Of a DNA stretch of 64,000 nucleotides, positions 6,083 through 34,977 are shown piece after piece. Source of the stretch: Minisyncoccota bacterium (lineage in GTDB: Bacteria > Patescibacteriota > Minisyncoccia > Phycocordibacterales > UBA9973). Position 1 is the first letter of the stretch. Each line of letters begins with the position of its first letter. The DNA lies in assembly GCA_035353995.1 (NCBI GenBank), contig DAOQAL010000001.1:308104-372103 (forward strand), read 5' to 3'. Under the pieces are notes generated by a model. That model was not told where the DNA came from, ran no database searches, and worked only from the letters and a program-made list of their open reading frames with translations. The position numbers were made by a program, and so were the translations under genes.

Positions 6083-6096
6083 GTTATTATTATAAC

Positions 6097-17147: not shown

Positions 17148-20100
17148 ATGTCAGAAAAACATAAGAATAAAAGAGTTTTACAACTAATAAGAAATATTTT
17201 ACAAATACTTAAACCAAAGTTGTCTTTTCACTATATTGCATACACTACTTTAGTAGCTTTGGTTGTTTTTTCTTTAGTAAATTTAGTTGGTGCTACAACT
17301 CCAAACCCTGGTCACTCATGGTCTGAAGTTGGAGATGGTGTTTTTGCAGTAACAAATAATCAAACAGCAATTCGCACTTACACTTTTCCAGATGCAAATG
17401 CAACTGTACTTACTACTAACGCACTTGTTACTGTTGCACAAGGTGGAACTGGTGCAAATACTTTAACAGGAATTTTAATTGGAAATGGAACTTCTGCTTT
17501 TACATCTGTAGCACTTACTGCAGGACAATCAATTCGAATGAATTCAGGTGGAACAGCTTATGAAGGTTTTACTCCTGGAACAGGAAATGTTAATTCTATC
17601 TCTGTCGCAACTTCAAATGGTTTTGCTGGTTCATCTTCTGGTGGTTCAAATCCAATCTTAACTTTATCTACTACTATCTCTGGAATGTTGAAAGGAAATG
17701 GAACTGCAATCAGTGCAGCAACAGATGGTTCTGATTTTCTTTCTTCTTCGACAGGATGGAAATTAAATGGACAAGCTCTCGGCACAAAAAAAACTCTTGG
17801 GTCTACTGATGGATATGCAATTGGTTTTCTAACTAATAATTCAGAAAGAATGACAATACTTTCTGGTGGTAACATTGGTATCGGTGTAACTTCACCGACA
17901 GCAGTTTTACATTTGAAAGCTGGTACTGCAACAGCAGGAACTGCACCATTAAAATTTGCATCAGGAGTATTACTAACAACTCCAGAAACAGGAGCAATGG
18001 AATTTGATGGAACTAATTTATATTTCACACCAGTTGATTTACGAAAGACAATTGCTTTTACAGAAGACATTGCATCTGGCTACGTTCCATACACAGGTGC
18101 AACTGCTGACGTTAATCTTGGAGCTTTTGATTTAACAACTACAGATCTTAATGTAAGTGGTATCGCTAATTTTACTGGAAGCGTTGCTGTTAACACTGAC
18201 CCAGACAACAACACTAGTGGTTTTGAATATGGAAATGGTTATGATCCATCTTCAAGTTATTATTACAATGAAAGATTTCGAGTAAATAGTTTTATGGAAA
18301 CACCACATATGTCTTTAGGTGTTGCTTCAAACTTTTTACTATATTCTGAAGATTTTTCAAATGCCGCTTGGGTAAAAACAAGTATAGGTTCAGTTAGTGC
18401 AAATGGTGTTAATGCTCCTAATGGATCAACTACTGCAGAAAATATTCCAGCTGGTTCTGCTTCAACTGCTAATATAGCTCAAACAATTACAAACAGTACT
18501 ACAGGATACTGGTCTGCTGGTGTTTGGGCAAGAACTCAAAGTGGAACAGCTACTATAGATTTGCAAATTGATAATGGATCAGCAGAAATTGGAACTCCTA
18601 AAACAGTTACAGTGGATACAAAATGGCGCTTCTTTGGTGTTGCTCAAAATTTTAGTCCTTCTTCTAATACAACAAAAACTTTTAAAATAACTTCTGGAAC
18701 AACAGCAATTTCTTTATGGGGTGCAAGAATGAATCAAGGTGAAACGATAAATTCATATCGTGCTACAACAAGTTCAAATTCTTCTACTCCTACATTTGGT
18801 GCATTTTTCAACAACACAACAATTTACGGTACTCTTTCTGGAAGTGCAAGTTCAGCTGGCTATGCTACTTATTCAAATAGTGGAATTTATGGTGGAGTAA
18901 CATTATCAAATACTACTGGCAATGCTGGAAAGTGGGAATTATTAGGATATGTAACTTTAACATATAACTCTACTTATGATTATGGACATTCTTGGGATTA
19001 TGAAGTCAACCTGAAAGAAATTAATAATGATGATTCAGCAATTTCACAAGTTGATTATGAGGATATTACTTTAAAACTTAAAGGAAATTTAGCAGAAGCA
19101 ACTAGTACTGCTACTTTCAATTCCGCTGTACCAACTTTCTCTATTGATGTTTCTGGTGCTACGCAATTAACTTCTAGTGATTTTGCAGCTGTTGTTTATT
19201 CGACAAGTACTTCAACTAAGGTAATTAGATATTATGTAAAATTGCCAGCTGCTAATTCTCATTACATGATTGTACCTATTAACTATCGTGGAGTTAGCTA
19301 TAACAGTACATTAGGTATAAGTACTTCTTACGTTTCTTGGACAACTTCTTCTAGTACTGCTGTGATAACAACCTTACCAACTCCACCTGCTGGTCAAGGT
19401 TCTGTAGTAAATGGAAATATTCTTTACACAACATACAAAGGCAATGGAATATTTAGTGGACTATTAAGTGGTACAGCTTTGAAATCTGCTAAGTGGTATC
19501 CAGGTGCTGACTCTACAACTGCAATTCAAATTAATAAAGCAGATGGTTTAACAAATATTATAAATATTGATACAACAAATGGAAGAATGGGTATCGGTAC
19601 AACTTTACCAACAGCATTACTAAATCTAGCAGCCGGTACTGCATCAGCAGGAACTGCTCCACTCAAATTTACATCAGGAACATTATTAACTACACCAGAG
19701 GATGGATCAGTAGAATTTGATGGAACTCACTATTATGTAACAGTTGGTTCTACTAGATACCAATTAGATCAACAAGCTCCAGGTGGAGGTATGGTGTACC
19801 CAGGATCAGGAATTGCAGTCTCAACAGGTTCTGCTTGGGGAACTTCAATCAGTGGAACATCTTCACAATTTGTAAAAGGTGATGGAAGTTTGGATTCAAA
19901 TACATACTTAACAACTTCTTCTGCTTCTTCAACTTATGTTCCTTACACTGGAGCAACAAGTGCAGTAGATTTAGGTGTTCATAATCTTACTGTTGATACA
20001 AATACATTGTTTGTAGATTCAACAAATCATAGAGTTGGAATCGGAACAACAAGTCCTACATCTAAGTTATATGTTAGTAGTGGAGGCGGAGTTAATTCTG

Positions 20101-23100
20101 GCATTGTTATTAAATCTGATGGAACAACTGGGACATATGCATCATTAGATTATGTAAATAAAAACAATGTAGCATTTCAGACAGGCTTATATGATTCTGG
20201 TAATGCTTTCTTTTATATGCCTTCAACTGGAAATAATATTGGATTCTATACGAACGATCTTGAAAGAATGACTATAGCAAAAACAGGTAATGTCGGAATT
20301 GGTACAACGAGTCCAACAGTTCCATTAGACATCACTGGAGCGGTAAACATATCAACTGGAAATTTAGATTTAGACAATACAACAAATGCAAATCAATATG
20401 GAGTGATCACAAAAAATGGGATCAGATTCATTCACAATTTTAATTATGGAAACAACGGTACTGTAACGACAGAAGGACATAATTTATTTATTGGAGAAAA
20501 TGCCGGTAACTTTACGATGGGATCAACGGCAAATTATGCTAATTATTCTTCAAGCAATGTTGGAATCGGTTATTCTACGTTAAGTTCGAATACAACTGGA
20601 TACTATAACTCTGCTGTAGGAATTTATGCTCTTTATTCTAACACCACAGGATACTCTAACTCTGCAATAGGAACACATGCTCTTATGCTTAATACCACAG
20701 GGTACGCTAACTCTACAGTAGGAAATGATGCTCTTTATAATAATACTTCAGGGTACAAGAACTCTGTAATTGGAAGTACAGCTCTCTTTAATAATACAAC
20801 AGGATACTCTAACTCTGCGATGGGATATGAAGCCGGCCGCTATGTTACAGGAAATGTAGCTAACACAACCAGTGATTATAGTATATACCTTGGTGCTAAT
20901 ACCAAAGCTCTTGCTGATGATGATCAAAATGAAATTGTAATAGGTTACGATGCTACGGGTGCCGGTTCAAACACTGCAGTAATAGGTAGCAGTTCTTTAA
21001 CTTCTGTATACCTCGGAAGTTCTACACCTAGCGCTAGACTATACACTAAAGGTATAACGTTATCTGCAGGTACAGCAACTGCTGGAACTGCTCCATTGAA
21101 GTTCACATCAGGAACATTGTTAGGAACAACGGAAGCAGGAACAATGGAATTTAATGGAACACATTTATACTTTACAGTAGCAAATAGCGGAACAAGATAT
21201 CAATTAGATCAACAAGCTCCAGGTGGAGGTATGGTTTACCCAGGAGCAGGTATTCCAATTTCAACAGGTTCTGCTTGGGGAACTTCAATCAGTGGAACAT
21301 CTTCACAATTTGTAAAAGGGGATGGAAGTTTGGATTCAAATACATACTTAACAACTTCTTCTGCATCTTCAACTTATGTTCCATATACTGGAGCAACAAG
21401 TGCAGTAGATTTAGGTGTTCATAATCTTACTGTTGATACAAATACATTGTTTGTAGATTCAACAAATCATTTTGTTGGTATTGGAACAACAACACCGAGT
21501 GTAAAACTAAATGTACTTGGTGTAACTGCGTTGCAATCTGGTGATGCTGATGGTGCTCTACGGATTGGTGCTGATGTTTTGGCTACTACACTTTCATCAA
21601 ATGTAAGAAAATTGGGAAGAGTAACAGCTCCTTCTTATAGTAATACATATTATTATTCATTGTTTTCTGCTGATAGTGATACGGGTGGTGATGGAATAGA
21701 ATTTGGAGGTAGAGCAGGAGCATTAAATTCATCTCCAACATATATTTCATTTGCTACAACTCCAACAGCAGGAAGTAGCGCTGGAAATGCGGAACGAATG
21801 AGAATAATAGGTAATGGAAACATTGGTATCGGCATAGCTTCACCAACAGCTAGATTACATTTACCAGCTGGTACAGCAACAGCAGGAACTGCTCCACTAA
21901 AATTTACATCAGGAACATTGTTAGGAACAACGGAAGCAGGAACAATGGAATTTAATGGAACACATTTATACTTTACAGTAGCAAATAGCGGAACAAGATA
22001 TCAATTAGATCAACAAGCTCCAGGTGGAGGTATGGTTTACCCAGGAGCAGGAATTCCAATTTCAACAGGCAGTGCTTGGGGAACTTCAATCAGTGGAACA
22101 TCTTCACAATTTGTAAAAGGGGATGGAAGCTTAGATTCAAATACATATTTAACTTCTGCTTCTTTGTCTGGTTATGTTCCTTATACTGGTGCAACCACAA
22201 ATGTAGTTCTCGGAGCAAATACTCTTTCAACAACTTCAGGTTTAATTTCTCCAAAACTTTATCCTGCAAGTGATTCAACAACAGCAATACAATTTAACAA
22301 AGCAGATGGAACAACAAATATTTTAAATATTGATACGACGAATTCTAGAGTTGGAATTGGGACAACAAGTCCAAGTGTTAAATTAGAAGTAGCGGGACAA
22401 GGTAAATTCATAAGTACAACTTTTCCAGTTCTTGATATAGTTAGAGATACAACGACTACTGCTGGTGGAGTTTATGGTGGTGCTAAATTAGAGAGAATTA
22501 TGACTGGCGGAACATCAGTCAATGGTACTGGTATAGGTTTTTATTTTAAGAATCCAGACTCAGCAGGAAATTCTACTTTTTCAGGTATTTTTGGTTCAGC
22601 ACTTTCAAGCGTAACAGATGGAAGTGAAGTCGGAGATGTTATTGTTTCTGCTGCTTGGCAAGGAGGAGATCCTTATTTAAATCAACACTTAGTTGTTAGA
22701 GCAACCGGCGCAACGACAGGTAACGTTTTGGTTCCGAATGGTAATGTCGGAATTGGAACAACTTCACCAAATCAACAATTAGAAATTACTCAAAACTTTA
22801 GACTTCCTTCTACAACTTATAATAGTGGAAATCCTTATGGGATAATTTACAAAGGAACAAATCCATTCATTCATGATTTCAATTATGGAAACAACGGTAC
22901 TGTAACGACAGAAGGACATAATTTATTTATTGGTGAAAGTGCAGGTAACTTTACAATGGGATCAACGGCAACATTATTAAGTCAATCATCAAACAATATT
23001 GGAATAGGGTATAATTCTCTTTCTGTAAATACTACTGGTTATGGCAATACAGCTATCAGCAATTATTCTTTGGAATCAAATACAACAGGTACTCAAAACT

Positions 23101-26100
23101 CTGCTATTGGTTATAAATCTCTGTCTAGTAATACTACTGGTAGCGTTAACTCTGCTTTTGGACCTTATTCTCTTTCTGGTAATACTACTGGTAGTAACAA
23201 TTCTGCTTTTGGATCTTATTCTCTTTCTGGTAATACTACTGGTATCTTAAATGTCGCTTTTGGTCAAAATGCTCTTTCTGGTAATACTACTGGTAATTAT
23301 AACTCTGCTTTAGGATATAACGCTGGTAGTTTTATTGCTGATGGTTCAACATCGAATACTTTTGGTTCAAATAGTTTATTTTTGGGCAGTTATTCAAGAG
23401 CTCTTGCTAATAATCAAACAAATCAAATTGTAATTGGTTATAATGCTATCGGTAACGGAAGCAATACAGCAACAATTGGAAACAGTTCTATATTAAGAAC
23501 ATATCTAAGAGGAGTAAATCTAGCAGCCGGTACTGCATCAGCTGGAACTGCTCCACTAAAATTTACATCAGGAACATTATTAGGAACACCTGAGACAGGA
23601 GCGATGGAATTTGATGGTTCTCACTATTACATAACAATAGGTTCAACTCGTTATCAATTAGATCAACAAGCTCCAGGTGGGGGTATGGTTTATCCAGGAG
23701 CGGGCATTCCAGTTTCGACAGGTTCAGCTTGGGATACATCTAAAACGGCACCTACGGGAGACATCGTTGGAACAACTGATACACAAGATCTTACTAACAA
23801 AACATACAATGGACTTTCTTTGTTAGGAAACAATACTGATTTTAATTCTTTTGTTGGTTACAATACTGGTCTTAATATTCCAAGCGGAGCACAATGGAAC
23901 TCTTTCTTTGGTTATGAAGCAGGAAAGGGAAGCGCAAGTACAAGTTATAATTATTCTAATACTGGAATAGGATATCAATCTTTGTATTCCATTACAGTTG
24001 GTAGTAATAACTCTGCACTAGGAAATAAGTCTCTGTACTATAATACTTCAGGATGGTCTAATACTGCAGTAGGAGATAGTTCACTTTCTTCTAATACTGA
24101 AGGTTATCTTAATGTTGCATTAGGTGTTGATTCTTTATCAAGTAATATTACAGGTTACGATAACTCTGCTATCGGTAGTTCTTCTATGTACTCTAACACT
24201 ACAGGTTACTATAACATCGCAATAGGAGGTGGTTCTATGTATTATAATACTACTGGAAATTATAACTCTGCTACAGGATATTCTTCTTTATCAAATAACA
24301 CAACAGGTAATATTAATTCTGCACTAGGATATGTAGCCGGATACTTTATAGCTGACAACTCAACGCCAAACACTACATCAGATTATAGTTTGTATTTAGG
24401 TGCATATACCAAAGCTCTTGCAGATAATGATCAAAATGAAATTGTAATTGGTTATGACACAACAGGTAATGGAAGCAACACAGCAACAATTGGAAACAGT
24501 TCTATATTAAGAACATATTTAAGAGGAGTAAATTTAGCAGGAGGTACAGCAACTGCAGGAACTGCTCCATTAAAATTTACATCAGGAACATTGTTAGGAA
24601 CTACAGAAGGTGGAGCAATGGAATTTGATGGTTCACATTTGTACTTCACAATAGCTGATAGCGGAACAAGATATCAATTAGATCAACAAGGAGGTATGGT
24701 TTATCCAGGAGCAGGTATTGCAATTTCAACAGGAAGTGCTTGGGGAACATCAATATCAGGAACATCCTCACAGTTTGTAAAAGGGGATGGAAGTTTAGAT
24801 TCAAATACATACTTAACAACTTCTTCTGCTTCTTCAACTTATGTTCCTTACACTGGAGCAACCACAGATGTAAATCTTGGAACACATACTCTTGCTTCAG
24901 GTTCAATAGATATCGCTACAGGTAATTTAGATTTAGATAACACTACTTATGCAAATCAATATGGATTGATTACCAAAAATGGAACCAGATTCATTCATAA
25001 TTTTTCCTACGGATTAAATGGAAATAATGTAACCCCAGAAGGTCGCAATTTATTTATTGGTGAAGGTGCCGGTAATTTTACGATGGGATCGGATGCAACT
25101 TACTATAGTTATTCTTCAAACAATATTGGAGTCGGTTATTCTACATTAAGTTTCAATACAACTGGATACGGTAACTTTGCGGTAGGAAGTTATGCTCTTT
25201 ATTACAACACCACAGGATACGGTAACTCTGCAATAGGAAAAAGTGCTCTGTTCTCTAATACTGAAGGATTCTTTAACTCTGCATTAGGAGATTCTGCTCT
25301 TAAATCTAATACTACAGGATATAGAAATATCTCAATGGGAAGTTACGCTCTTAATTCAAACACCACAGGAAGCCATAATTCTGCATTAGGATATAATACT
25401 GGTCGCTATATTGCAAACGGAAGCACTGGTAATACCACTAGTGACTACAGTGTATATCTTGGTGCTATGACAAAAGCTCTTGCCGACGATGATCAAAACG
25501 AAATTGTAATCGGTTACAACGCCACCGGTGCCGGTTCAAACACTGCCGTAATCGGAAACAGTTCTGTAACTTCGGTATATCTCGGAAGCTCTACTGCTGG
25601 CGCAAGACTCTACACTAATGGCGTAACGTTATCTGCCGGTACAGCAACAGCAGGAACTGCACCACTAAAATTTACATCAGGAACATTACTAGGAACAACA
25701 GAAGGTGGAGCAATGGAATTTGATGGTTCACATTTGTACTTTACTATAGCTGATAGCGGAACAAGATATCAATTAGATCAACAAGGAGGTATGGTTTACC
25801 CAGGATCAGGAATTGCAATCTCAACAGGAAGTGCTTGGGGAACTTCAATCAGTGGAACATCTTCACAATTTGTAAAAGGGGATGGAAGTTTGGATTCAAA
25901 TACATACTTAACCTCTGCATCTTTGTCTGGTTATGTTCCTTACACTGGTGCAACCACAAATGTAGTTCTCGGAGCAAATACTCTTTCAACAACTTCAGGT
26001 TTAATTTCTCCAAAACTTTATCCTGCAAGTGATTCAACAACAGCAATACAATTTAACAAAGCAGATGGAACAACAAATATTTTAAATATTGATACGACAA

Positions 26101-29100
26101 ATGGAAGAGTGGGAATGGGTACGACGAGTCCATCATCAATGCTTCATATTTATGATACTACTGCTAGCGGAACATTTGCTGATGGATTATATTTACAAGC
26201 AGGAAATGATGCAAATGCAATTAGGGTACGTTTGAAAAATACTAATTCTGATTTTTTTATTAACGCATACGGAACTGGAGCAATCGGTGCATTAGCAAAT
26301 TCAATTGGATTTTTTGCTAGTGGAAGTTCAACTAATGATTTTATTATTGGGCATACTGGAACAACTTCTGGAAATGATATTAGATTTTTTACAAATAATG
26401 ATTATTCAGATGCAAATGAATTAGTGATTACACAAGGCGGACTTGTTGGAATGGGAACATCAACTCCAACTGGAAAATTAAATATAATAAATACATCAGA
26501 ACAATTACGTATTGGATATAGTTCTAGTGTTTATTATTCAACTACAATTGATTCTACAGGGACAGTTATATTTGATTCTACTGGTGGCGCTTCATCTCGA
26601 TTTTCATTTGCAGACAATCTAGGTATCGGAACAACTTCACCAAGCAATATACTTTCTCTAGGTGGAACAACAGCTAGAACAATTTGGATGGAACGTAACA
26701 CAACAGCAGGAACTGCAGGACAGGCACTAACTTTGTTCTCTGGTGGTGCATATTCTGGTGGAACTAATTTGAATGGTGGAGATTTATATTTAAAATCTGG
26801 TATTTCTACTGGTACTGGATCATCATCTATGCATTTTCTTACTGCAACAGCAGGAAGTAGTGGAACAGCTGACAATACTCCAACCGAAAAAATGACTATT
26901 CTTGCTAATGGTAAAGTAGGTATTGGAAATACAAATCCATCATCAAAATTAACAGTTACTGATGTGAATAGTATTTTCTTCGTTCCAAACCAGGGAGCTA
27001 CTGGTGAAATTCCAGCAGGAACTGCAATGTCTACAAGTTCTAACTTTACATTTTTGGGAGATGGAACTGGTGGAGTTGGAAATGGAGTTATGGTTGCTTA
27101 TTACAATCAAACACAATGGCTTTCCGCCGTACAGACTGCAAACGTTAGTAGTGGTTATGGAAATTTATTGTTAATGAAATCTGGTGGATCTGTAGGTGTA
27201 GGTACTTCTGCTCCAACAGCTAGATTACATTTAGGAGCAGGATCAGCTACAGCAGGAACTGCTCCATTAAAATTTACATCAGGAACATTACTAACAACAG
27301 CTGAGGCAGGAGCAATGGAATTTGATGGAACTCACTATTATGTAACAGTTGGTTCTACTAGATACCAATTAGATCAACAAGCTCCAGGTGGAGGTATGGT
27401 TTATCCAGGAGCAGGTATTCCAATTTCAACAGGTTCTGCTTGGGGTACATCTATATCAGGAACATCTTCACAGTTTGTAAAAGGGGATGGAAGTTTAGAT
27501 TCAAATACATACTTAACAACTTCTTCTGCATCTTCAACTTATGTTCCATATACAGGTGCAACCACAAATGTAGTTCTCGGAGCAAATACTCTTTCAACAA
27601 CTTCAGGTTTAATTTCTCCAAAACTTTATCCTGCAAGTGATTCAACAACAGCAATACAATTTAACAAAGCAGATGGGACAACAAATATTTTAAATATTGA
27701 TACGACAAATGGGAGAGTGGGAATTGGGACAACAAGTCCTACTAAAAAATTAGAAGTATCTGGTAATTTAGGTGCTGGAGGAATATTTAATGTTAACTCT
27801 TCGACTCCAGCAGATTTCGTTGGTTTGGAAACCTCTTCTGGTCGTTCAGCTATTGTTTTCAACAATTCAAATTCCAGGATGTATTATGATTCTTCAGCAA
27901 ATACTTTTAATATGTTTCCAGTTGTTGGAACATATGATGACCCATCAAGTTGGAATTATTCAACGATGTCTTATGCCTTAACTAGTCAAACTCTATATTT
28001 GAATGGTGCTGGAGGAGTTGAAATTGGTCAAGGAGGTTTGATTTCTACAAAAATAGTTGATACAACTACTGATTATCAAAATTATACTGGTTCTACTTTC
28101 TCCATGTGGAAGAGATTAGGAAACAACACAGTAAATACATTAAATGGATTGAACTTAAATTATGGTGGATATTGGAGTGCTGCTGGAACTATTACTGATT
28201 CTGCTGGAATATACTCTGCTTTTGCAGCTGCTGATTCTTCGGCTGCTAATTTTACAAATGTTTATGGTATTAAAACAAGTTTTACTAATGTAGGAACTGG
28301 TACAATTACAAATCAATATGGTATTTATATTCCATCTGATTCAGTTGCTACAAATGTATATGGTATATCATCAAATATTGCTAGTGGAACTAATAAATGG
28401 AATATGTATGTTGCAGGTACAGCTAATAACTATTTTGCCGGCAATGTTGGAATCGGAACGACGACCCCACAAGCTGCATTAAATGTAATTGGAGACGTAA
28501 TGTTAGGATACAATTCAACAGGGCAAAAAATTTATCCATATTATTATAGTGCTACGAATTATAATGCAATTTCTTCTGATAGCTCAGGTGCTATGACATT
28601 TATCACTGGTGTTACATCTCCTTCAGAAAGAATGAGAATTGATAATTCTGGTTATGTTGGAATAGGTAATGCTTCTCCAGCAACGACTCTTGATATTACA
28701 GGAGCAGGTGGCTCTCCTTCTGGCACACCATCTTTTCCTGTTAGAGTTGTGTCTGGAACGAATACTAATCCAGGTATGATTTTTGAACGAAGTGATGCAA
28801 GTAAATTTGTTAACCTTTGGACGGGAAGTGGAGCAGCAATATTAGGATTTACTGATACTGCTTCAAGGATGGCTATTGGAACTTATACTTACGCAGATAG
28901 ATATTCTACTGGTTTCCCAACAAAAGAAATTTTGTCTCTTCTTCCTAGTGGAAATGTTGGAGTAGGAGTTACAAATCCTACAGCAAAACTTCATTTAAAA
29001 GCATCTGATGGGACAGCAGGAAGTGCATCATTAAAAATTACAGATGGAACATTGCTATCAACTCCAGAAGCAGGAGCAATAGAATTTGTTGGAACAAGTC

Positions 29101-31718
29101 TATACTTCACTCCATCTACTACAAGGAAGACAATTGCTTTTGCAGAAGATATTTCATCTGGTTATGTTCCTTATACTGGTGCAACCACAAATGTAGTTCT
29201 CGGAGCAAATACTCTTTCAACAACTTCAGGTTTAATTTCTCCAAAACTTTATCCTGCAAGTGATTCAACAACAGCAATACAATTTAACAAAGCAGATGGA
29301 ACAACAAATATTTTAAATATTGATACGACTAATGGGAGAGTTGGAATCGGAACAACTTCTCCAAATCAACAATTAGAAATTACTAAAAACTTTAGACTCC
29401 CTTCTACTACTTATAATAGCGGAAGTCCTTATGGAGTAATCTACAAAGGTACATCAACATTTATTCATGATTTTACCTACGGATTAAATGGGAATGGTAT
29501 AACACCATCAGGCTATAATACTTTCTTAGGTGTTAGTGCTGGTAATTTAACAATGGGTTCAACAGCTGCATATTCTTATCAATCTTCCTATAATACTGGA
29601 ATTGGAACTAGCGCATTATATGCAAATACAACTGGTAGAAGAAATACGGCAGTTGGTTCTAGCTCTTTAACTTACAACAATACAGGTTACCAAAATACAG
29701 CTGTTGGTTACTCTGCTCTCTATGCCAATAATAGTGGTGATACAAATACTGCATTAGGTGCACAGTCTCTTTATTCTAATACCACAGGTGCTAACAATGT
29801 TGGTGTTGGATACTATTCTTTAGGTGGAAATGTTTCAGGTACAAATAATATAGGGATAGGGGGCAGTTCTGGTTATTATATTTCTGATGGTACTACATCT
29901 AATACAGCAGGAACATATTCTATATTTTTAGGACAAAATACAAAAGCTTTAGCTGATTCTCAAACAAACCAAATTGTTATCGGATATAATTCAATAGGTC
30001 TTGGAAGTAATACTGTAACTTTAGGAAATAGTAGTATCATTACAACAGCATTAAGAGGTAATATAGGAATCGGAACAACAAGTCCAGATAGATTATTGCA
30101 TGCTGAAGTTTCTGATGCTGTAACCAATGCAGTAACTTATGCAGGACGTTTGTCTCATATAACTTCTGGAACATCTGCAACAAGTTTTGGAACAGGATTA
30201 GAATTTGAATTAGAAAATGCTTCTGGTACAAATAAAATAGCAAGTACAATTGAATCTGTTTGGGAAACTGCAACAGATGCGTCTGAAGATAGTGCGATTG
30301 TTTTCAAAAATATGATAGGTGGAACTAGTGCAGCAGAAGTTCTTAGAATCAGAAAAGAGGGAACAAGCTCTACTTCTCTTAAAACACTAAGTTCGTTACA
30401 AATTGCGCCTACTGATGATTTTACAATTTATCAAAATTTAGTAACTCCATTTACTTCTGTTGGTTCTGGTGCAGTTGATGATACTTTAGTTCTTAAAGCT
30501 GGAAACGTAGGAATTGGCAACGATGCTCCAGGAGCTTTACTTGATATTGGTTATTCAGGAACTACTGGAGGAGTAATAAGATTAGAAGGAAGCTCAAGAA
30601 ATTATGTTGATATTGCAGCTGCTGCAGATGCTGGAGCTTGGACAATGACATTACCTGCAAGTACAGGAACTACTGGACAGCAACTTACAACAAATGGTTC
30701 TGGTGTAACTTCTTGGCAAGCTGCTGGTTCTTTAAGAAGTATTAAAAATGTTTTTGACGAAGTTACTCCAGAAGAAGGATTAGAACAAGTACTTACAACA
30801 GCAGTTTATCATTTCAAATATAAACCTGGTTTAGGAACTGGTGATAGCGATACTATGTATGTTGGTGTGATGGCTGATGAAGCTCCTTGGGCAATGCATT
30901 ATAATGGAACCATTGTTAACCCAGTAAATACTTTAGGTTATATGATCTTGTCCACAAAAGCTCTTAATGAAAAAATAGTGGCACTTGGTTCAACTGTTGA
31001 TGATATGAATTTGAAATTAAAAAATTTGGAAACTATATTGCCAACAGATTTAATAGAAGATCCTGATACTTTTGGAAATAATTTTGTTGCATTATTTAAT
31101 GATGTAATTATAAAAGTTGAAGACGGTGTTGCATATATGAAAGGAATAGCAACAGATACATTAAAAATAGGTAGTTCAGAAAAAAGAACTGGTATAACTT
31201 TGTATGATGAAGTTACTGGAGATCCATATTGTATTTCTGTTGCAGATGGTAAAAGTAAAACTACTGAAGGTGAATGCGGAACTATAACTCCTGAAGATGT
31301 TATTGCTACTTCTCAAGGTTCAGATTTACCGACAGAAAGTTCAGATTCAACTGATACAACAACTGATACTATTGTAGCAACAATAGATGGAGCAACAGAA
31401 ACAACTACAACAGAAGAATCAACAATAGGTACAGAATCAACAAACATAACAACACAAACAATAGATACATTACTTGCTGAAGCAGATCCACCACAAATAA
31501 CATTAAACGGAGATAGCTCTATAACATTAACAGTTGGTTCTACTTATGAAGAACTTGGTGCACTTGCAACATCTGATATAGATGGAACAGTTGCAGTAAT
31601 CATTGAAGGTTCAGTTGATACAAATACAGTTGGAACTTATATTATTTCTTATAAAGCTTTTGATACAAATGGAAATTCAGCTACTCCTGTAGAAAGAATC
31701 GTAAATGTAACTTTGTAA
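17148..31718 (+). CDS. giant 4856-aa surface fibre/adhesin-like protein. N-terminal TM anchor, tail-fibre-like repeats, Hep_Hag/YadA-head-like repeats and a CBM-like module. C-terminal peptidase-S74-type intramolecular chaperone domain and a terminal Ig-like (DUF5011-like) domain
   Basis: A single uninterrupted ORF. The N-terminal hydrophobic helix is YIAYTTLVALVVFSLVNLVGA. About nine copies of the module AGTAPLKFTSGTLL..MEFDG.HLYFT..TRYQLDQQAPGGGMVYPG..SQFVKGDGSLDSNTYL...VPYTGAT....RVGIGTTSP. Hep_Hag-type heptad blocks, NTTGYxNSAxGxxAL. The CBM-like piece is SEDFSNAAWVKTSIG. The C-terminal SLRSIKNVFDEV...VYHFKYK...YVGVMADEAPWAMHY...LNEKIVAL matches the CIMCD/S74 pattern. Confidence 0.85.
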   Translation: MSEKHKNKRVLQLIRNILQILKPKLSFHYIAYTTLVALVVFSLVNLVGATTPNPGHSWSEVGDGVFAVTNNQTAIRTYTFPDANATVLTTNALVTVAQGGTGANTLTGILIGNGTSAFTSVALTAGQSIRMNSGGTAYEGFTPGTGNVNSISVATSNGFAGSSSGGSNPILTLSTTISGMLKGNGTAISAATDGSDFLSSSTGWKLNGQALGTKKTLGSTDGYAIGFLTNNSERMTILSGGNIGIGVTSPTAVLHLKAGTATAGTAPLKFASGVLLTTPETGAMEFDGTNLYFTPVDLRKTIAFTEDIASGYVPYTGATADVNLGAFDLTTTDLNVSGIANFTGSVAVNTDPDNNTSGFEYGNGYDPSSSYYYNERFRVNSFMETPHMSLGVASNFLLYSEDFSNAAWVKTSIGSVSANGVNAPNGSTTAENIPAGSASTANIAQTITNSTTGYWSAGVWARTQSGTATIDLQIDNGSAEIGTPKTVTVDTKWRFFGVAQNFSPSSNTTKTFKITSGTTAISLWGARMNQGETINSYRATTSSNSSTPTFGAFFNNTTIYGTLSGSASSAGYATYSNSGIYGGVTLSNTTGNAGKWELLGYVTLTYNSTYDYGHSWDYEVNLKEINNDDSAISQVDYEDITLKLKGNLAEATSTATFNSAVPTFSIDVSGATQLTSSDFAAVVYSTSTSTKVIRYYVKLPAANSHYMIVPINYRGVSYNSTLGISTSYVSWTTSSSTAVITTLPTPPAGQGSVVNGNILYTTYKGNGIFSGLLSGTALKSAKWYPGADSTTAIQINKADGLTNIINIDTTNGRMGIGTTLPTALLNLAAGTASAGTAPLKFTSGTLLTTPEDGSVEFDGTHYYVTVGSTRYQLDQQAPGGGMVYPGSGIAVSTGSAWGTSISGTSSQFVKGDGSLDSNTYLTTSSASSTYVPYTGATSAVDLGVHNLTVDTNTLFVDSTNHRVGIGTTSPTSKLYVSSGGGVNSGIVIKSDGTTGTYASLDYVNKNNVAFQTGLYDSGNAFFYMPSTGNNIGFYTNDLERMTIAKTGNVGIGTTSPTVPLDITGAVNISTGNLDLDNTTNANQYGVITKNGIRFIHNFNYGNNGTVTTEGHNLFIGENAGNFTMGSTANYANYSSSNVGIGYSTLSSNTTGYYNSAVGIYALYSNTTGYSNSAIGTHALMLNTTGYANSTVGNDALYNNTSGYKNSVIGSTALFNNTTGYSNSAMGYEAGRYVTGNVANTTSDYSIYLGANTKALADDDQNEIVIGYDATGAGSNTAVIGSSSLTSVYLGSSTPSARLYTKGITLSAGTATAGTAPLKFTSGTLLGTTEAGTMEFNGTHLYFTVANSGTRYQLDQQAPGGGMVYPGAGIPISTGSAWGTSISGTSSQFVKGDGSLDSNTYLTTSSASSTYVPYTGATSAVDLGVHNLTVDTNTLFVDSTNHFVGIGTTTPSVKLNVLGVTALQSGDADGALRIGADVLATTLSSNVRKLGRVTAPSYSNTYYYSLFSADSDTGGDGIEFGGRAGALNSSPTYISFATTPTAGSSAGNAERMRIIGNGNIGIGIASPTARLHLPAGTATAGTAPLKFTSGTLLGTTEAGTMEFNGTHLYFTVANSGTRYQLDQQAPGGGMVYPGAGIPISTGSAWGTSISGTSSQFVKGDGSLDSNTYLTSASLSGYVPYTGATTNVVLGANTLSTTSGLISPKLYPASDSTTAIQFNKADGTTNILNIDTTNSRVGIGTTSPSVKLEVAGQGKFISTTFPVLDIVRDTTTTAGGVYGGAKLERIMTGGTSVNGTGIGFYFKNPDSAGNSTFSGIFGSALSSVTDGSEVGDVIVSAAWQGGDPYLNQHLVVRATGATTGNVLVPNGNVGIGTTSPNQQLEITQNFRLPSTTYNSGNPYGIIYKGTNPFIHDFNYGNNGTVTTEGHNLFIGESAGNFTMGSTATLLSQSSNNIGIGYNSLSVNTTGYGNTAISNYSLESNTTGTQNSAIGYKSLSSNTTGSVNSAFGPYSLSGNTTGSNNSAFGSYSLSGNTTGILNVAFGQNALSGNTTGNYNSALGYNAGSFIADGSTSNTFGSNSLFLGSYSRALANNQTNQIVIGYNAIGNGSNTATIGNSSILRTYLRGVNLAAGTASAGTAPLKFTSGTLLGTPETGAMEFDGSHYYITIGSTRYQLDQQAPGGGMVYPGAGIPVSTGSAWDTSKTAPTGDIVGTTDTQDLTNKTYNGLSLLGNNTDFNSFVGYNTGLNIPSGAQWNSFFGYEAGKGSASTSYNYSNTGIGYQSLYSITVGSNNSALGNKSLYYNTSGWSNTAVGDSSLSSNTEGYLNVALGVDSLSSNITGYDNSAIGSSSMYSNTTGYYNIAIGGGSMYYNTTGNYNSATGYSSLSNNTTGNINSALGYVAGYFIADNSTPNTTSDYSLYLGAYTKALADNDQNEIVIGYDTTGNGSNTATIGNSSILRTYLRGVNLAGGTATAGTAPLKFTSGTLLGTTEGGAMEFDGSHLYFTIADSGTRYQLDQQGGMVYPGAGIAISTGSAWGTSISGTSSQFVKGDGSLDSNTYLTTSSASSTYVPYTGATTDVNLGTHTLASGSIDIATGNLDLDNTTYANQYGLITKNGTRFIHNFSYGLNGNNVTPEGRNLFIGEGAGNFTMGSDATYYSYSSNNIGVGYSTLSFNTTGYGNFAVGSYALYYNTTGYGNSAIGKSALFSNTEGFFNSALGDSALKSNTTGYRNISMGSYALNSNTTGSHNSALGYNTGRYIANGSTGNTTSDYSVYLGAMTKALADDDQNEIVIGYNATGAGSNTAVIGNSSVTSVYLGSSTAGARLYTNGVTLSAGTATAGTAPLKFTSGTLLGTTEGGAMEFDGSHLYFTIADSGTRYQLDQQGGMVYPGSGIAISTGSAWGTSISGTSSQFVKGDGSLDSNTYLTSASLSGYVPYTGATTNVVLGANTLSTTSGLISPKLYPASDSTTAIQFNKADGTTNILNIDTTNGRVGMGTTSPSSMLHIYDTTASGTFADGLYLQAGNDANAIRVRLKNTNSDFFINAYGTGAIGALANSIGFFASGSSTNDFIIGHTGTTSGNDIRFFTNNDYSDANELVITQGGLVGMGTSTPTGKLNIINTSEQLRIGYSSSVYYSTTIDSTGTVIFDSTGGASSRFSFADNLGIGTTSPSNILSLGGTTARTIWMERNTTAGTAGQALTLFSGGAYSGGTNLNGGDLYLKSGISTGTGSSSMHFLTATAGSSGTADNTPTEKMTILANGKVGIGNTNPSSKLTVTDVNSIFFVPNQGATGEIPAGTAMSTSSNFTFLGDGTGGVGNGVMVAYYNQTQWLSAVQTANVSSGYGNLLLMKSGGSVGVGTSAPTARLHLGAGSATAGTAPLKFTSGTLLTTAEAGAMEFDGTHYYVTVGSTRYQLDQQAPGGGMVYPGAGIPISTGSAWGTSISGTSSQFVKGDGSLDSNTYLTTSSASSTYVPYTGATTNVVLGANTLSTTSGLISPKLYPASDSTTAIQFNKADGTTNILNIDTTNGRVGIGTTSPTKKLEVSGNLGAGGIFNVNSSTPADFVGLETSSGRSAIVFNNSNSRMYYDSSANTFNMFPVVGTYDDPSSWNYSTMSYALTSQTLYLNGAGGVEIGQGGLISTKIVDTTTDYQNYTGSTFSMWKRLGNNTVNTLNGLNLNYGGYWSAAGTITDSAGIYSAFAAADSSAANFTNVYGIKTSFTNVGTGTITNQYGIYIPSDSVATNVYGISSNIASGTNKWNMYVAGTANNYFAGNVGIGTTTPQAALNVIGDVMLGYNSTGQKIYPYYYSATNYNAISSDSSGAMTFITGVTSPSERMRIDNSGYVGIGNASPATTLDITGAGGSPSGTPSFPVRVVSGTNTNPGMIFERSDASKFVNLWTGSGAAILGFTDTASRMAIGTYTYADRYSTGFPTKEILSLLPSGNVGVGVTNPTAKLHLKASDGTAGSASLKITDGTLLSTPEAGAIEFVGTSLYFTPSTTRKTIAFAEDISSGYVPYTGATTNVVLGANTLSTTSGLISPKLYPASDSTTAIQFNKADGTTNILNIDTTNGRVGIGTTSPNQQLEITKNFRLPSTTYNSGSPYGVIYKGTSTFIHDFTYGLNGNGITPSGYNTFLGVSAGNLTMGSTAAYSYQSSYNTGIGTSALYANTTGRRNTAVGSSSLTYNNTGYQNTAVGYSALYANNSGDTNTALGAQSLYSNTTGANNVGVGYYSLGGNVSGTNNIGIGGSSGYYISDGTTSNTAGTYSIFLGQNTKALADSQTNQIVIGYNSIGLGSNTVTLGNSSIITTALRGNIGIGTTSPDRLLHAEVSDAVTNAVTYAGRLSHITSGTSATSFGTGLEFELENASGTNKIASTIESVWETATDASEDSAIVFKNMIGGTSAAEVLRIRKEGTSSTSLKTLSSLQIAPTDDFTIYQNLVTPFTSVGSGAVDDTLVLKAGNVGIGNDAPGALLDIGYSGTTGGVIRLEGSSRNYVDIAAAADAGAWTMTLPASTGTTGQQLTTNGSGVTSWQAAGSLRSIKNVFDEVTPEEGLEQVLTTAVYHFKYKPGLGTGDSDTMYVGVMADEAPWAMHYNGTIVNPVNTLGYMILSTKALNEKIVALGSTVDDMNLKLKNLETILPTDLIEDPDTFGNNFVALFNDVIIKVEDGVAYMKGIATDTLKIGSSEKRTGITLYDEVTGDPYCISVADGKSKTTEGECGTITPEDVIATSQGSDLPTESSDSTDTTTDTIVATIDGATETTTTEESTIGTESTNITTQTIDTLLAEADPPQITLNGDSSITLTVGSTYEELGALATSDIDGTVAVIIEGSVDTNTVGTYIISYKAFDTNGNSATPVERIVNVTL
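19650..20055 (+). repeat. intragenic near-identical DNA repeat, family A (tail-fibre module), copy 1
   Basis: The 35-mer caattagatcaacaagctccaggtggaggtatggt recurs at 19761, 21201, 22002 and 27366, with variants at 23655, 24675 and 25770. Reverse-frame ORFs are identical across copies. Confidence 0.8.
21075..21500 (+). repeat. intragenic repeat family A, copy 2
   Basis: Same module, near-identical at DNA level to 19650-20055. Confidence 0.8.
21870..22375 (+). repeat. intragenic repeat family A copy 3, fused to family B copy 1 (from ~22188)
   Basis: Family B is the unit ggtgcaaccacaaatgtagttctcggagcaaatactctttc...tttaacaaagcagatgg. It occurs at 22188, 25947, 27555 and 29178. Confidence 0.8.
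23527..23735 (+). repeat. intragenic repeat family A, truncated copy 4
   Basis: Same APLKFTSGTLL...QLDQQAPGGGMVYPGAG block. Confidence 0.7.
24543..24900 (+). repeat. intragenic repeat family A, copy 5 (variant lacking the APGG codons)
   Basis: QLDQQGGMVYPGAG variant; otherwise near-identical. Confidence 0.75.
25640..26135 (+). repeat. intragenic repeat family A copy 6 fused to family B copy 2
   Basis: Near-identical to 24543-24900 and 22188-22375. Confidence 0.8.
27245..27745 (+). repeat. intragenic repeat family A copy 7 fused to family B copy 3
   Basis: Near-identical DNA; the matching antisense small ORF is at 27440-27654. Confidence 0.8.
29178..29365 (+). repeat. intragenic repeat family B, copy 4
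   Basis: The same ~170-bp unit, encoding TTNVVLGANTLSTTSGLISPKLYPASDSTTAIQFNKADGTTNILNIDTTNGRVGIGTTSP. Confidence 0.8.
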
Positions 31719-31729
31719 AACAGAATTAA

Positions 31730-32719
31730 ATGAAAATAAAAAAAATAAAAAATTATTTTTATATTGTATTAGTTGTAATTTTTGTTTTATTTTTTGCAAA
31801 ATCTGTTTACGCTACATTAACATGCAGTGTTAAAACTGCTGGGGCTTGTTCTGATATCGTTATGTTTAGAATGTCTGGATCATCAAATGCACATGCAGAA
31901 CTTCCAGGTCAAACAACTTCTGTTTATGACAATAATGTTGTTTGCTGTAGCGGTGTTACAGGTTTGGGAAATTCTTGTTCTGGAAATTATAAAGTTTTAA
32001 TGAGAATGTCTGGAGTTACAAATGCTCACGTTGAAGAAAATACACAAACAAATGTAAATTATACGCAGAATGCTTGTATATCAAGTATTTTTGGAGACAC
32101 TATTACTGTAGGATATCAAGCAAGTAATTGTAATGGTTATGATACAACAATTGCTTCTATGGAAAGATCTCCAACAAATTCTCAAATAGGGAATACAAGT
32201 GCTTACAATAATAAAATTTGTGCTGATATTTTTTCTCAATCAATAACATTTAATGTTTCTGATTCTTCAATCGGTTTTGGCTCTCTTACTCCAACAGGAA
32301 TTCGTTATGCAACAGGTGATGGAATTGGTAGCGATTCAGAAACAGAATCTTACAATGTCAGTGCAAGTACAAATGCTCCATATGGATATTTAATTTATTT
32401 GCAAGGTGATTCACTTTCAAATGGTATAAGTACAATTGATCCGATGGGTGGAACAAATATTCCACCAGCTTCAGGATCAGAAGGTTTCGGAATGAGAGCA
32501 GTTGCATCAGGTGGAACAGGAACAGTTGTGTCCCCATATGATGGATCAGGTTTTGCTTATGATGCATCTAGTACAAGTTCAACTGTAGTTGCAGAAGAAA
32601 CAACAGGAGATGACATTACAACAACTTATTCAATACGTACTGTAGCAACAATAGATTCATTACTTGATCCAGGAAACTATACTACAAATCTTACTTATGT
32701 TATTGTTGCAGGTTTTTAA
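31730..32719 (+). CDS. secreted Cys-rich protein with internal repeats and a C-terminal module shared with the two downstream paralogs
   Basis: Signal peptide. Repeated VMFRMSGSSNAHAELPGQ / VLMRMSGVTNAHVEEN units with paired Cys. The C-terminus TTYSIRTVATI...GNYTTNLTYVIVAGF parallels the paralog C-termini. Confidence 0.6.
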   Translation: MKIKKIKNYFYIVLVVIFVLFFAKSVYATLTCSVKTAGACSDIVMFRMSGSSNAHAELPGQTTSVYDNNVVCCSGVTGLGNSCSGNYKVLMRMSGVTNAHVEENTQTNVNYTQNACISSIFGDTITVGYQASNCNGYDTTIASMERSPTNSQIGNTSAYNNKICADIFSQSITFNVSDSSIGFGSLTPTGIRYATGDGIGSDSETESYNVSASTNAPYGYLIYLQGDSLSNGISTIDPMGGTNIPPASGSEGFGMRAVASGGTGTVVSPYDGSGFAYDASSTSSTVVAEETTGDDITTTYSIRTVATIDSLLDPGNYTTNLTYVIVAGF

Positions 32720-32843: not shown

Positions 32844-33899
32844 ATGTTGAAATTTAATAAGTCTAATTTGTTTAAAGTAATAGGAGTTTTTGTTTTGGTA
32901 GTATTCTCTTTTGTTTACATACAATTTGCAACTGCTTCCGCTCTTACTTCTCTAAAAGATACTCTTACTTCAGAAAAAGCATCTACCGTTGCAAATCATA
33001 CAATTGTATTTACAACACCAACTGGTGTTGCTGCTAGTCAGACTATAATTTTAACTTTTGATAATGGTACAACTTTCACTTCTGGTTTAGATTTTACTGA
33101 TATAGATTTGGCAGACGATGGAACAGAAGTGACTCTTGCTGCTACAGCAACTGGTACAACTTGGGGAGTTTCTGCAGCTAGTCCAGTTATAACTTTTACA
33201 AATGGTAGTACTGTTGTTGCTGCTGGAAGTGTAATAACAATTAAAATTGGTACTAATGCATCGAGTGGAGGTACTGGTGATAAGCAAATAATAAACGGTG
33301 CATCAGGAACCACTAAACTAGTTATCACGGGAACATTTACAGATACTGGAACTATTGCTATTCCAATAATTGCAGATGACACTGTTGTAGTTAATGCAGT
33401 TGTTCAACCAATTATTTCATTTACACTTTCTGATAATACTATTTATTTTGGAAACTTGAGTTCATCTGTGAATTGTTTTGCTCAAGGTACAGATCCTGGA
33501 AACGTTACATGCCCTATAACTTCAGAGGCAGAAGCATTTAAGATTACAGCAGGAACAAATGCTACATCTGGTTATGTGATAACTGTACAAGGTGGAACAC
33601 TTACATCTGGATTAAATACTATTACTCCACTTGCTTCAAACACTCCATCTGCACCTACTACAGAACAATTTGGTATTAGATTTAATGCTTCTGGTGGTTC
33701 AGGAACAGTGACTGCACCTTACGCAGCATCTGGATATGCTTTTACAGCAACAACTTCATCTGCAGTTCAAATTGCTTCTTCTTCAGCAGTTTCTGACACA
33801 ACTACTTATTCAGCTAGATACCTTGCAAACATCTCTACTTCAACAGAAGCAGGAATTTATACAGCTAGTCATACATATGTAGCGACTGCGACATTTTAA
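32844..33899 (+). CDS. secreted surface protein, paralog 1, with a WxL-like (W replaced by Y/F) C-terminal beta-rich module
   Basis: Signal peptide ending ATASA. Central and C-terminal blocks are shared with 33919-34977. The C-terminus ...YSARYLANISTSTEAGIYTASHTYVATATF resembles the WxL-domain terminus GEYTATITWTLxxAP, and a DUF916-like gene lies downstream. Confidence 0.5.
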   Translation: MLKFNKSNLFKVIGVFVLVVFSFVYIQFATASALTSLKDTLTSEKASTVANHTIVFTTPTGVAASQTIILTFDNGTTFTSGLDFTDIDLADDGTEVTLAATATGTTWGVSAASPVITFTNGSTVVAAGSVITIKIGTNASSGGTGDKQIINGASGTTKLVITGTFTDTGTIAIPIIADDTVVVNAVVQPIISFTLSDNTIYFGNLSSSVNCFAQGTDPGNVTCPITSEAEAFKITAGTNATSGYVITVQGGTLTSGLNTITPLASNTPSAPTTEQFGIRFNASGGSGTVTAPYAASGYAFTATTSSAVQIASSSAVSDTTTYSARYLANISTSTEAGIYTASHTYVATATF

Positions 33900-33918
33900 T
33901 AAATAATTAATTATAACA

Positions 33919-34977
33919 ATGCAAAAAGTTTCTAAATCAGTTTTATTTAAAATAACGAGCATATTTGTTTTAATAGTATTCTCTTTTGTTTACATACAAT
34001 TTGCAACTGCTTCCGCTCTTACTTCTCTAAAAGATACTCTTACTTCAGAAAAAGCATCTACCGTTGCAAATCATACAATTGCATTTACAACACCAACTGG
34101 TGTTGCTGCTAGTCAGACTATAATTTTAACTTTTGACAACAGTACAAGTATTCCTGCTGGTTTAGATTATACTGATATAGACTTAACAGACGATGCAGTA
34201 GACTTAACACTTGCTGGTAGTGCATCTGGTGCAACTTGGGGAGTTGTGCGTACTTCTGCTTTAGTCATAACTTTTACAAATGGAACAACAGCTGTTGCTG
34301 CTGGAAGTGTAATAACAATTGAAATTGGTACTAATGCAACATTTGGTGTAGCTGGAGATCAACAAATTACAAATGGTGTAGCAGGAACCACTAAACTAGT
34401 TATCACGGGAACATTTACAGATACTGGAACTATTGCTATTCCAATAATTGCAGATGACACTGTTGTAGTTAATGCAGTTGTTCAACCAATTATTTCATTT
34501 ACACTTTCTGATAACACTATTTATTTTGGAAACTTGAGTTCATCTTTGACCTGTTTTGCTCAAGGCACAGATCCTCTAAACACAACATGTCCTGTAACTA
34601 CAGAGACAGAAGCATTTAATATGACAGCAGGAACAAATGCTACATCTGGTTATGTGATAACTATAAAAGGAGGCACTCTAACATCTGGAGGGAATACTAT
34701 TACTGCACCAGCTGTAAATACTGTGCCTACAGTAGGGCAAGAGCAATTTGGTGTTAGATTTACTTCATCTGGTGGTACGGGAACAGTAACTGCACCTTAT
34801 GCAGCTGCAGGATATGCGCTTTCTTCAACTTCTACAACAACAGCACAAATTGCTTCAGCACCAGGAGTTTCTGCAACAACTACTTATTCAGCCAGATATC
34901 TTGCAACAATAGGTACTTCAACAGAAGCAGGAATTTATACAACTAGCCATACATATGTCGCAACTTCAACATTTTAA
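33919..34977 (+). CDS. secreted surface protein, paralog 2 (tandem duplicate of 32844-33899), WxL-like C-terminal module
   Basis: Mature N-terminus VYIQFATASALTSLKDTLTSEKASTVANHTI is identical to paralog 1. An identical block LVITGTFTDTGTIAIPIIADDTVVVNAVVQPIISFTLSDNTIYFGNLSSS sits mid-gene, and the C-terminus is ...IYTTSHTYVATSTF. Confidence 0.5.
   Translation: MQKVSKSVLFKITSIFVLIVFSFVYIQFATASALTSLKDTLTSEKASTVANHTIAFTTPTGVAASQTIILTFDNSTSIPAGLDYTDIDLTDDAVDLTLAGSASGATWGVVRTSALVITFTNGTTAVAAGSVITIEIGTNATFGVAGDQQITNGVAGTTKLVITGTFTDTGTIAIPIIADDTVVVNAVVQPIISFTLSDNTIYFGNLSSSLTCFAQGTDPLNTTCPVTTETEAFNMTAGTNATSGYVITIKGGTLTSGGNTITAPAVNTVPTVGQEQFGVRFTSSGGTGTVTAPYAAAGYALSSTSTTTAQIASAPGVSATTTYSARYLATIGTSTEAGIYTTSHTYVATSTF

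Follow-up and report, generated by a model that had tools for sequence, protein, structure and literature searches.

Tandem Pam-type pilin genes of a Paceibacterota genome and their probable homogenization by gene conversion

Two pilin genes and the blocks they share

We analyzed a 64,000-nt (64-kb) stretch of DNA from a Paceibacterota metagenome-assembled genome (MAG; GenBank assembly GCA_035353995.1, contig DAOQAL010000001.1, positions 308,104 to 372,103 of the forward strand; below, the window, whose own numbering is used throughout), in which two adjacent pilin genes alternate between near-identical and divergent blocks. Pilin paralog A (32844-33899, 351 aa) and pilin paralog B (33919-34977, 352 aa) were taken from the list of open reading frames (ORFs) and lie on the plus strand, with 19 nt between the stop of A and the start of B; they are probably co-transcribed, and a scan for promoters and terminators around the genes gave no excess over shuffled sequence. 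Public records annotate both products as hypothetical proteins of a "Candidatus Paceibacterota" MAG. We read the pair, with good though not full confidence, as tandem paralogs of the Pam pilin type that diverged and were then homogenized by gene conversion, which overwrote at least two tracts.

Both proteins match the NCBIfam model NF058581 (CPR_Pam_pilin_C, "Pam pilus system pilin subunit"; CPR, candidate phyla radiation), at 87.2 bits for A and 70.0 bits for B against a cut-off of 55. Through this model, which links them indirectly to PamA and PamB, A and B are identified as the major pilins, arranged in tandem, of a Pam-type pilus operon carried by a Paceibacterota (CPR) genome. Pfam returned nothing significant for A, B, or the upstream gene C. 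A search for homologs of the pilin yielded 810 sequences at E ≤ 1e-5; those that carry a source name are proteins of Patescibacteria MAGs, as are most of 80 loci from GTDB genomes, the few others being single MAG contigs that look mis-binned. The gene identities (pilins of the Pam type, encoded in the pilus operon of a CPR bacterium) are an addition to a reading made earlier from the letters and ORFs of the window (the sequence-only reading), which had noted the paralogy of the two genes.

Pam pili are known from Ca. Mycosynbacter amalyticus (Saccharimonadia), where cryo-EM of the filament identified PamA (WP_260763287.1) and PamB (WP_260763280.1) as the subunits (Troman et al., bioRxiv 10.64898/2026.03.03.709456; statements on Pam pili here refer to the sections of that preprint considered). 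These pilins are Sec-secreted, and a single inter-domain linker strand of each is donated to the C-terminal domain of its neighbor (10.64898/2026.03.03.709456). The AlphaFold2 (AF2) model of A, with a predicted local distance difference test (pLDDT) score of 85.8, likewise consists of two domains joined by a linker, with a signal helix at residues 6-23, N-terminal-domain strands at 36-176, the linker at 177-190, and the C-terminal domain at 191-349. The predicted domains of A are a Sec-type signal peptide, an N-terminal beta-sandwich (~34-176), the linker (~177-190), and a Pam-type C-terminal domain (191-351). A Sec signal peptide is predicted from sequence features and the AF2 helix of A: a basic n-region, the hydrophobic helix 6-23, and, ahead of the conserved start of the mature protein, a site of the A-x-A type (ATASA). 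Linker 177-190 of A (IADDTVVVNAVVQP) has no predicted secondary structure, and its pLDDT falls below 50 at residues 181-185; the linker segment DDTVVVNAVVQP appears to carry the alternating hydrophobic pattern expected of a donated strand, and residues ~177-190 may well be that strand. A sequence search of the PDB with the pilin profile gave no match at E ≤ 10 in a PDB copy that holds no Pam structures, and it is because of this absence that fold searches with the pilin model returned generic immunoglobulin (Ig)-like pilin and adhesin domains only.

Aligned with MAFFT, A and B are identical at 890 of 1,059 nucleotides (84.0%), with one 3-nt indel, and their proteins are 76.6% identical. This identity is unevenly spread. 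The first 16 codons (the n-region of the signal peptide, ~45 nt) are only 60% identical, after which block 1 begins (32899-33061 in A, 163 nt, ~codons 19-73; 33974-34136 in B by alignment to the A copy; both plus strand). Its sole mismatch, at 33007 (T/C, Val to Ala), separates perfect runs of 108 and 54 nt, and in the AF2 secondary structure the block runs from the last part of the signal peptide over the cleavage region into strands one to three of the N-terminal domain. Block 2 (33304-33467 in A, 164 nt, ~codons 154-208; 34382-34545 in B, likewise by alignment; both plus strand) has a single, synonymous mismatch at 33437 between perfect runs of 133 and 30 nt; it spans the last two strands of the N-terminal domain, the linker IADDTVVVNAVVQP, and the first strand of the C-terminal domain (AF2). 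Outside the blocks, identity ranges from 64 to 93% per 15-codon window; segments at 87-91% are intermediate and hint at older conversion events. The sequence-only reading had placed the blocks correctly to within about 5-15 nt and had described the divergence between the genes as a mosaic, which alignment, windowed identity, and synonymous sites all bear out, the profile being far from uniform; it had also called the blocks perfectly identical, and here the near-identity is real, while each block holds one mismatch.

The mosaic is present at synonymous sites. Where A and B specify the same residue, 3 of 109 codons differ within the blocks and 35 of 158 outside them (Fisher p=3.6e-6), and the two longest identical runs together were matched in 8 of 100,000 shuffles of the synonymous differences (p=8e-5). 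Nei-Gojobori estimates of the synonymous divergence (dS) between A and B are 0.046 in block 1 and 0.024 in block 2, and 0.41 and 0.39 in the two intervening regions. We considered constraint, at the nucleotide or the protein level, as the cause of the blocks and rejected it: within the blocks, the comparison of A or B with the closest relative, P0003, is saturated at synonymous sites (dS 1.1-2.3; 1.1-1.9 for A), and mean column conservation across the family is 0.69-0.78 in the blocks versus 0.76-0.77 elsewhere, block 1 even taking in part of the signal peptide, a stretch with poor conservation in the pilin family. Since orthologs vary freely at the synonymous sites of the blocks, the identity of A and B there reflects shared recent ancestry and not constraint. 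The proposal of gene conversion between the tandem copies, made in the sequence-only reading, thereby stands as the best explanation, with the mosaic holding at synonymous sites and constraint excluded by the orthologs.

Comparison with other sequences shows how far the two kinds of region differ. At the nucleotide level, A and B are 98-99% identical to each other in the blocks, where their identity to any ortholog is only 55-78%; in the variable regions, A and B share 77-80% and the best value to any other sequence is 76%. In the variable part of the N-terminal domain, the two proteins are 62% identical, and B is 79-80% identical to single-copy orthologs; in the variable part of the C-terminal domain, B is the more derived copy. 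This asymmetric divergence is mainly non-synonymous, the synonymous distances to orthologs being similar for both copies. In the variable regions, comparison of A with B gives a ratio of non-synonymous to synonymous divergence (dN/dS) of 0.48-0.56, which approaches 1 in some local windows; comparisons between orthologs give 0.04-0.21. The asymmetry of the non-synonymous changes and the raised dN/dS together indicate relaxed or diversifying selection on different parts of A and B.

Related loci and competing explanations

Conversion recurs in relatives of the window, which are designated here by locus numbers. Many related genomes, including the closest relative, L081, carry a C-like gene and a single major pilin; several others carry arrays of 3-4 pilin copies. 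In L085/L086, copies a and b, whose background identity is 44-93% in 15-codon windows, agree perfectly over a 446-nt tract (codons 147-295) and over 90 nt at the 3' end, and the pair in L088/L090 has an identical 3' end of about 120 nt. In L087, the sister genome of L085, two coding sequences (5225-6277 and 6377-7429) are 100% identical over exactly their 1,053 nt, with unrelated flanks, and both resemble copy b of L085; this could be either a whole-gene conversion or an effect of assembly. L098 (155-3544), whose contig name suggests a long-read assembly, holds at least four tandem pilin copies, of which copy c takes its upstream region and first ~125 nt from d and its body from b (perfect runs of 402, 341, and 196 nt); the end of the signal peptide aside, b and c differ mainly in the linker region. 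Thus, as far as these sequences indicate, conversion is frequent in this pilin family, and the positions of the tracts differ among lineages.

Phylogenies of separate segments point in the same direction. In the clade of L011, L085, L088, and L018, the a and b copies are old orthologous lineages, and in a tree of the variable part of the N-terminal domain 85a falls among the pilins of other genomes, next to 88a and L002 and apart from 85b; for the C-terminal domain and linker, 85a groups with 85b. This incongruence is clear in the relatives and only partial for the window pair, because the latter has no close outgroup. Older pairs (L011, L018, L033, L046, and L099-L101) show uniform divergence, so mosaicism is not a property of every duplicated locus.

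We also examined whether the position of the blocks is meaningful. Co-resident paralogs in the window, L085, L088, and L093 are most alike at codons ~151-195 (98, 100, 89, and 81%, respectively), whereas between genomes identity over these codons is at most 76%, apart from 82% in the 85/87 sister pair, and cross-genome pairs show no regional excess. Tests in the relatives used the block coordinates of the window, fixed in advance, at synonymous sites. Block 2 gave p=2e-4 in the window and p=7.5e-5 in L085, with marginal values in L093 (p=0.054) and L088 (p=0.077), and block 1 gave p=8e-4 in L093. Judged on five co-resident pairs, there was a strong case that conversion always hits these two segments; the average excess shrank once eight more pairs, from four further loci, were added, and we retain the idea only as a doubtful possibility.

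Four other histories could place near-identical blocks in two divergent genes. In the first, which we consider unlikely, the duplication is very recent and the blocks are its remnants, recombination having brought divergent pilin alleles from other strains into the variable regions by horizontal import. The family is generally mosaic, and A and B do diverge asymmetrically, as import would allow (the N-terminal region of A is at 62% to B, which itself is at 79-80% to orthologs, and the C-terminal region of B is the more derived). However, the variable regions of A and B are each other's closest relatives at the nucleotide level (77-80% versus a best of 76%), the asymmetry is mainly non-synonymous while synonymous distances to orthologs are alike, and no donor allele appears among the 810 homologs or in the genome and metagenome scans.

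The second is an artefact of assembly: in a short-read metagenome, near-identical paralog segments may collapse or repeats be phased wrongly. The DNA does come from a MAG, its perfect repeats (108-133 nt) approach the length of reads or k-mers, and the two fully identical copies of L087 are unusual for a short-read assembly to resolve. Against this, two other assemblies, L083 (GCA_964524305.1, a 421-kb NCBI contig) and L084 (JGI 3300010352, a 135-kb contig of the Joint Genome Institute, JGI), carry 9,056 nt around the genes without a single base of difference; protein A is encoded exactly by 8 contigs in total, and the sequence is the same in all assemblies recovered. The single mismatches retained in the blocks argue against wholesale collapse of the paralogs, which would in any case need a true identity of about 95% or more, so that the mosaic would persist anyway. 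Furthermore, the 90%-identity protein clusters hold no alternative A/B recombinant, and L098, long-read by its contig name, is also mosaic. An artefact is therefore very unlikely.

We give similarly little credence, and if anything slightly less, to a third history, programmed antigenic or phase variation in which frequent conversion generates surface variants. The model for such a system is pilE/pilS of Neisseria, where silent, promoterless cassettes of a type IV pilus donate sequence to one expression locus in a G-quadruplex (G4)-dependent and very frequent process that alters exposed regions. The likeness lies in pilin genes altered by conversion between homologous copies, here tandem ones that bear conversion tracts, with arrays of 3-4 copies in relatives. 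Unlike pilE/pilS, the window has no silent cassettes, no G4 motif, and no allele diversity in the databases. A and B are both complete genes that have a start codon and encode a signal peptide; when the 64-kb window was searched with A, B, and C by blastn and tblastn, the three complete genes were the only matches, with no silent, partial, truncated, or extra pilin copies, and a motif search found no G4. In the public data, A and B each sit alone in their 90%-identity cluster, no recombinant form of either turned up in about 15 billion proteins, and JGI metagenome contigs, scanned for close strain variants of A, yielded relatives at 68% identity or less and nothing closer. The recent tracts, moreover, raise the likeness of the copies, and do so in the predicted structural core and not in exposed loops. 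These observations also bear on two suggestions of the sequence-only reading that we do not retain: that recombination is ongoing, when each block already holds one substitution, the protein clusters contain no recombinants, and the JGI scan yielded no close strain variant, and that it offers a route to surface variation, when both recent tracts homogenize and neither silent cassettes nor a G4 motif are found in the 64 kb. Last, a recent duplication with positive selection on exposed regions, the blocks being merely unchanged, would suit the dN/dS of the variable regions and its local values near 1 but predicts low dS throughout, so that a dS of ~0.4 in these regions, 10-17 times the block value, makes it hardly credible.

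Several points weigh against divergence followed by conversion, or against parts of it. This genome offers two sequences only, and the closest relative, at 69% protein identity, is too distant for the tracts to be oriented, counted, or dated. Conversion was tested pairwise, and all data, the phasing over perfect repeats of 108-133 nt included, come from metagenome assemblies. The donor strand is assigned by analogy with PamA/PamB and from a part of the AF2 model where confidence is low. Preferential homogenization of the linker does not hold in L011, L099, L100, and L101, and in b and c of L098 it is reversed, the linker being the most divergent patch outside the signal-peptide end.

The history that we favor, divergence of tandem paralogs followed by conversion, would run as follows. 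A lineage-specific duplication, or an older one whose copies were kept similar by earlier conversions, would have produced A and B, which would then have diverged to a dS of about 0.4, or ~20% at the nucleotide level. Non-reciprocal homologous recombination between the adjacent copies would have overwritten at least two tracts of ~163 nt, each of which would since have gained one substitution. The outcome is a common signal-peptide end, common first strands of the N-terminal domain, and a common segment that leads from the last N-terminal-domain strands across the linker into the start of the C-terminal domain, with the remaining N- and C-terminal-domain regions diverging at about 3-5 times the usual dN/dS of the family.

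Other genes of the locus

Upstream of A lies gene C (31730-32719, plus strand, 329 aa; ORF list, NCBIfam, and synteny), whose product has a signal peptide, followed by an N-terminal domain in which 8 cysteines occur and a C-terminal domain of the Pam type. Its score against NF058581, 53.8 bits, is just under the cut-off of 55, and residues 172-329 of C align with 191-351 of A at 41% identity over 163 aa (E=7e-30); the sharing is limited to the C-terminal domain. These values uphold the proposal of a three-member family joined by a C-terminal module. The 8 cysteines are conserved in most C-like orthologs, and a C-like gene stands immediately upstream of the major pilin in many related loci. The segment of C before its C-terminal domain is unlike the pilin linker and contains Cys, with no clear deletion in the alignment there. 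Gene C is a candidate for a minor or tip subunit. Comparison of C with A and B by blastn and tblastn within the window gave no sign of conversion. Within C itself, a duplicated motif occurs at 31854-31900 and 31989-32035 (MFRMSGSSNAHAE and LMRMSGVTNAHVE).

The gene that follows B (34998-36029, plus strand, 343 aa) is a putative membrane-anchored pilus chaperone of the PamC/PamD type, as judged from AF2 and Foldseek. Its AF2 model (pLDDT 79.9) has a signal peptide, two Ig-like domains, and a C-terminal transmembrane helix at 298-332. Searched against the PDB with Foldseek, this model is matched best by the Enterococcus faecium WxLIP structures 9i25 and 9i1y (9i25_C; E about 1e-10), followed by the chaperone-usher chaperones CfaA, CsuC, CupB2, DraB, and EcpB, and also by RbmA. 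No NCBIfam model matches the product, and its Pfam match to WxLIP_PGBD is weak and not significant (E=0.12). In those related loci for which genes were called, the pilin is followed by a gene coding for about 340-346 aa. Like the WxL/WxLIP (DUF916-DUF3324) proteins of Firmicutes, the 343-aa protein has a signal peptide, two beta-sandwich domains, and a C-terminal transmembrane anchor; unlike in WxL clusters, the partner proteins carry the Pam-type C-terminal domain and not WxL. The Pam chaperones of CPR bacteria and the DUF916/DUF3324 WxLIP proteins of Firmicutes may be the same kind of membrane-anchored two-Ig protein.

Three more genes, in the same orientation as the pilins, continue the series on the plus strand: 36013-36930, with Big_6 and dockerin/EF-hand matches (ORF list, Pfam/NCBIfam), and 36934-37836 and 37790-38593, each with a C-terminal hydrophobic tail (ORF list). 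Anchor or accessory roles are possible for this trio, and genes that match it in size and order also lie downstream in L081, L085, L087, and L089. The product of 36013-36930 ends in a dockerin/EF-hand module (Pfam Dockerin_1, 23.9 bits versus a cut-off of 22.9), and in related loci a Cohesin (PF00963) gene lies on the opposite strand a few genes downstream (13997-15505 in L085 and 11218-12717 in L087, both minus strand), which suggests a possible cohesin-dockerin pair within the CPR pilus locus.

Directly upstream of gene C, the ORF 17148-31718 (plus strand) encodes a giant repetitive surface protein of 4,856 aa with a Bact_surface_Ig-like domain at its extreme C-terminus. It is context and lies outside the conversion; related loci likewise have large proteins upstream. 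Its many long, near-identical internal repeats look like a further substrate for intragenic recombination. The window neighbors of the Pam-like operon are LeuRS, YchF, TsaC, MurJ, an ATP-binding cassette (ABC) exporter, LepA, and glycolytic genes, and the 64-kb window around the operon holds no ATP-synthase genes. The leucyl-tRNA synthetase (14171-17056) is long, at 961 aa, with weak NUDIX/MutT-like matches in an insertion at about residues 385-502.

Relation to known filaments

Pam pili are specific to the CPR, polymerize through donor-strand exchange, and have no usher; PamC and PamD, membrane-anchored PapD-like chaperones, are encoded alongside the pilins, and single filaments switch between stretches of PamA and PamB (10.64898/2026.03.03.709456). 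Across the CPR, the conserved neighbors of pam operons are ATP-synthase genes and also a tail-fiber-like protein (10.64898/2026.03.03.709456). The locus described here resembles that system in its CPR host, in Sec-secreted, two-domain pilins whose N-terminal beta-sandwich is joined by a single linker strand to a C-terminal domain of truncated Ig-like form (predicted in our case), in several pilin paralogs per operon, in a chaperone-like two-Ig transmembrane protein with no usher, and in an adjacent giant or tail-fiber-like protein. It differs in class, Paceibacteria here and Saccharimonadia in Ca. M. amalyticus, and in the pilins themselves, which are of equal size and 77% identical in amino-acid sequence in the window, whereas PamA (55 kDa) and PamB (39 kDa) have low identity. 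The window also has one clear chaperone-like gene and lacks ATP-synthase neighbors. The preprint sections considered make no mention of gene conversion among Pam pilins (10.64898/2026.03.03.709456).

With the chaperone-usher pili (Pap/Fim), the system shares the logic of donor-strand exchange, Ig-like pilin domains, the PapD-like fold of the chaperone, and several pilin paralogs per operon; unlike Pap/Fim, it lacks an usher and an outer membrane, has its chaperone anchored in the membrane, adds an N-terminal domain to the pilin, and uses an internal linker, not an N-terminal extension, as the donated strand (10.64898/2026.03.03.709456).

The mechanism proposed for A and B is ordinary: a well-known evolutionary process gains one more instance, here in a filament family that was described only lately, and no system of a new kind is involved. 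Concerted evolution of paralogs by gene conversion is known for tufA/tufB in Salmonella and for babA/babB and other Hop adhesins in Helicobacter pylori. As in tufA/tufB and babA/babB, copying is non-reciprocal, tracts of near-identity include synonymous sites, and phylogenies of different segments disagree; unlike those, the genes here are adjacent and co-oriented in one operon, and their subunits are likely to co-polymerize.

Block 2 covers the predicted donor-strand linker, so that conversion homogenizes this predicted assembly segment. A and B may co-assemble in one filament, and identical assembly segments could then be advantageous and not incidental. It is doubtful, though worth stating, that selection retains conversion where the donor linker and its flanking strands stay identical between co-resident major pilins of such usher-less pili, a concerted evolution of the assembly interface. 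If this were true, any subunit could dock on any other and a single chaperone would serve all of them, while the remainder of each pilin diversified for host binding.

The first description of Pam pili dates from 2026, and they are believed to establish the initial contact between CPR episymbionts and their hosts. The locus reveals a Pam-like operon in Paceibacterota, in a family whose major pilin often occurs in tandem arrays and whose copies swap segments by conversion. For the evolution of the filament, the picture is one of predicted assembly segments that were lately homogenized, with the rest diverging at raised dN/dS. A and B are thus a natural pair of subunits, with identical presumed donor strands and a different remainder, which would be useful for tests of co-polymerization and of host specificity.

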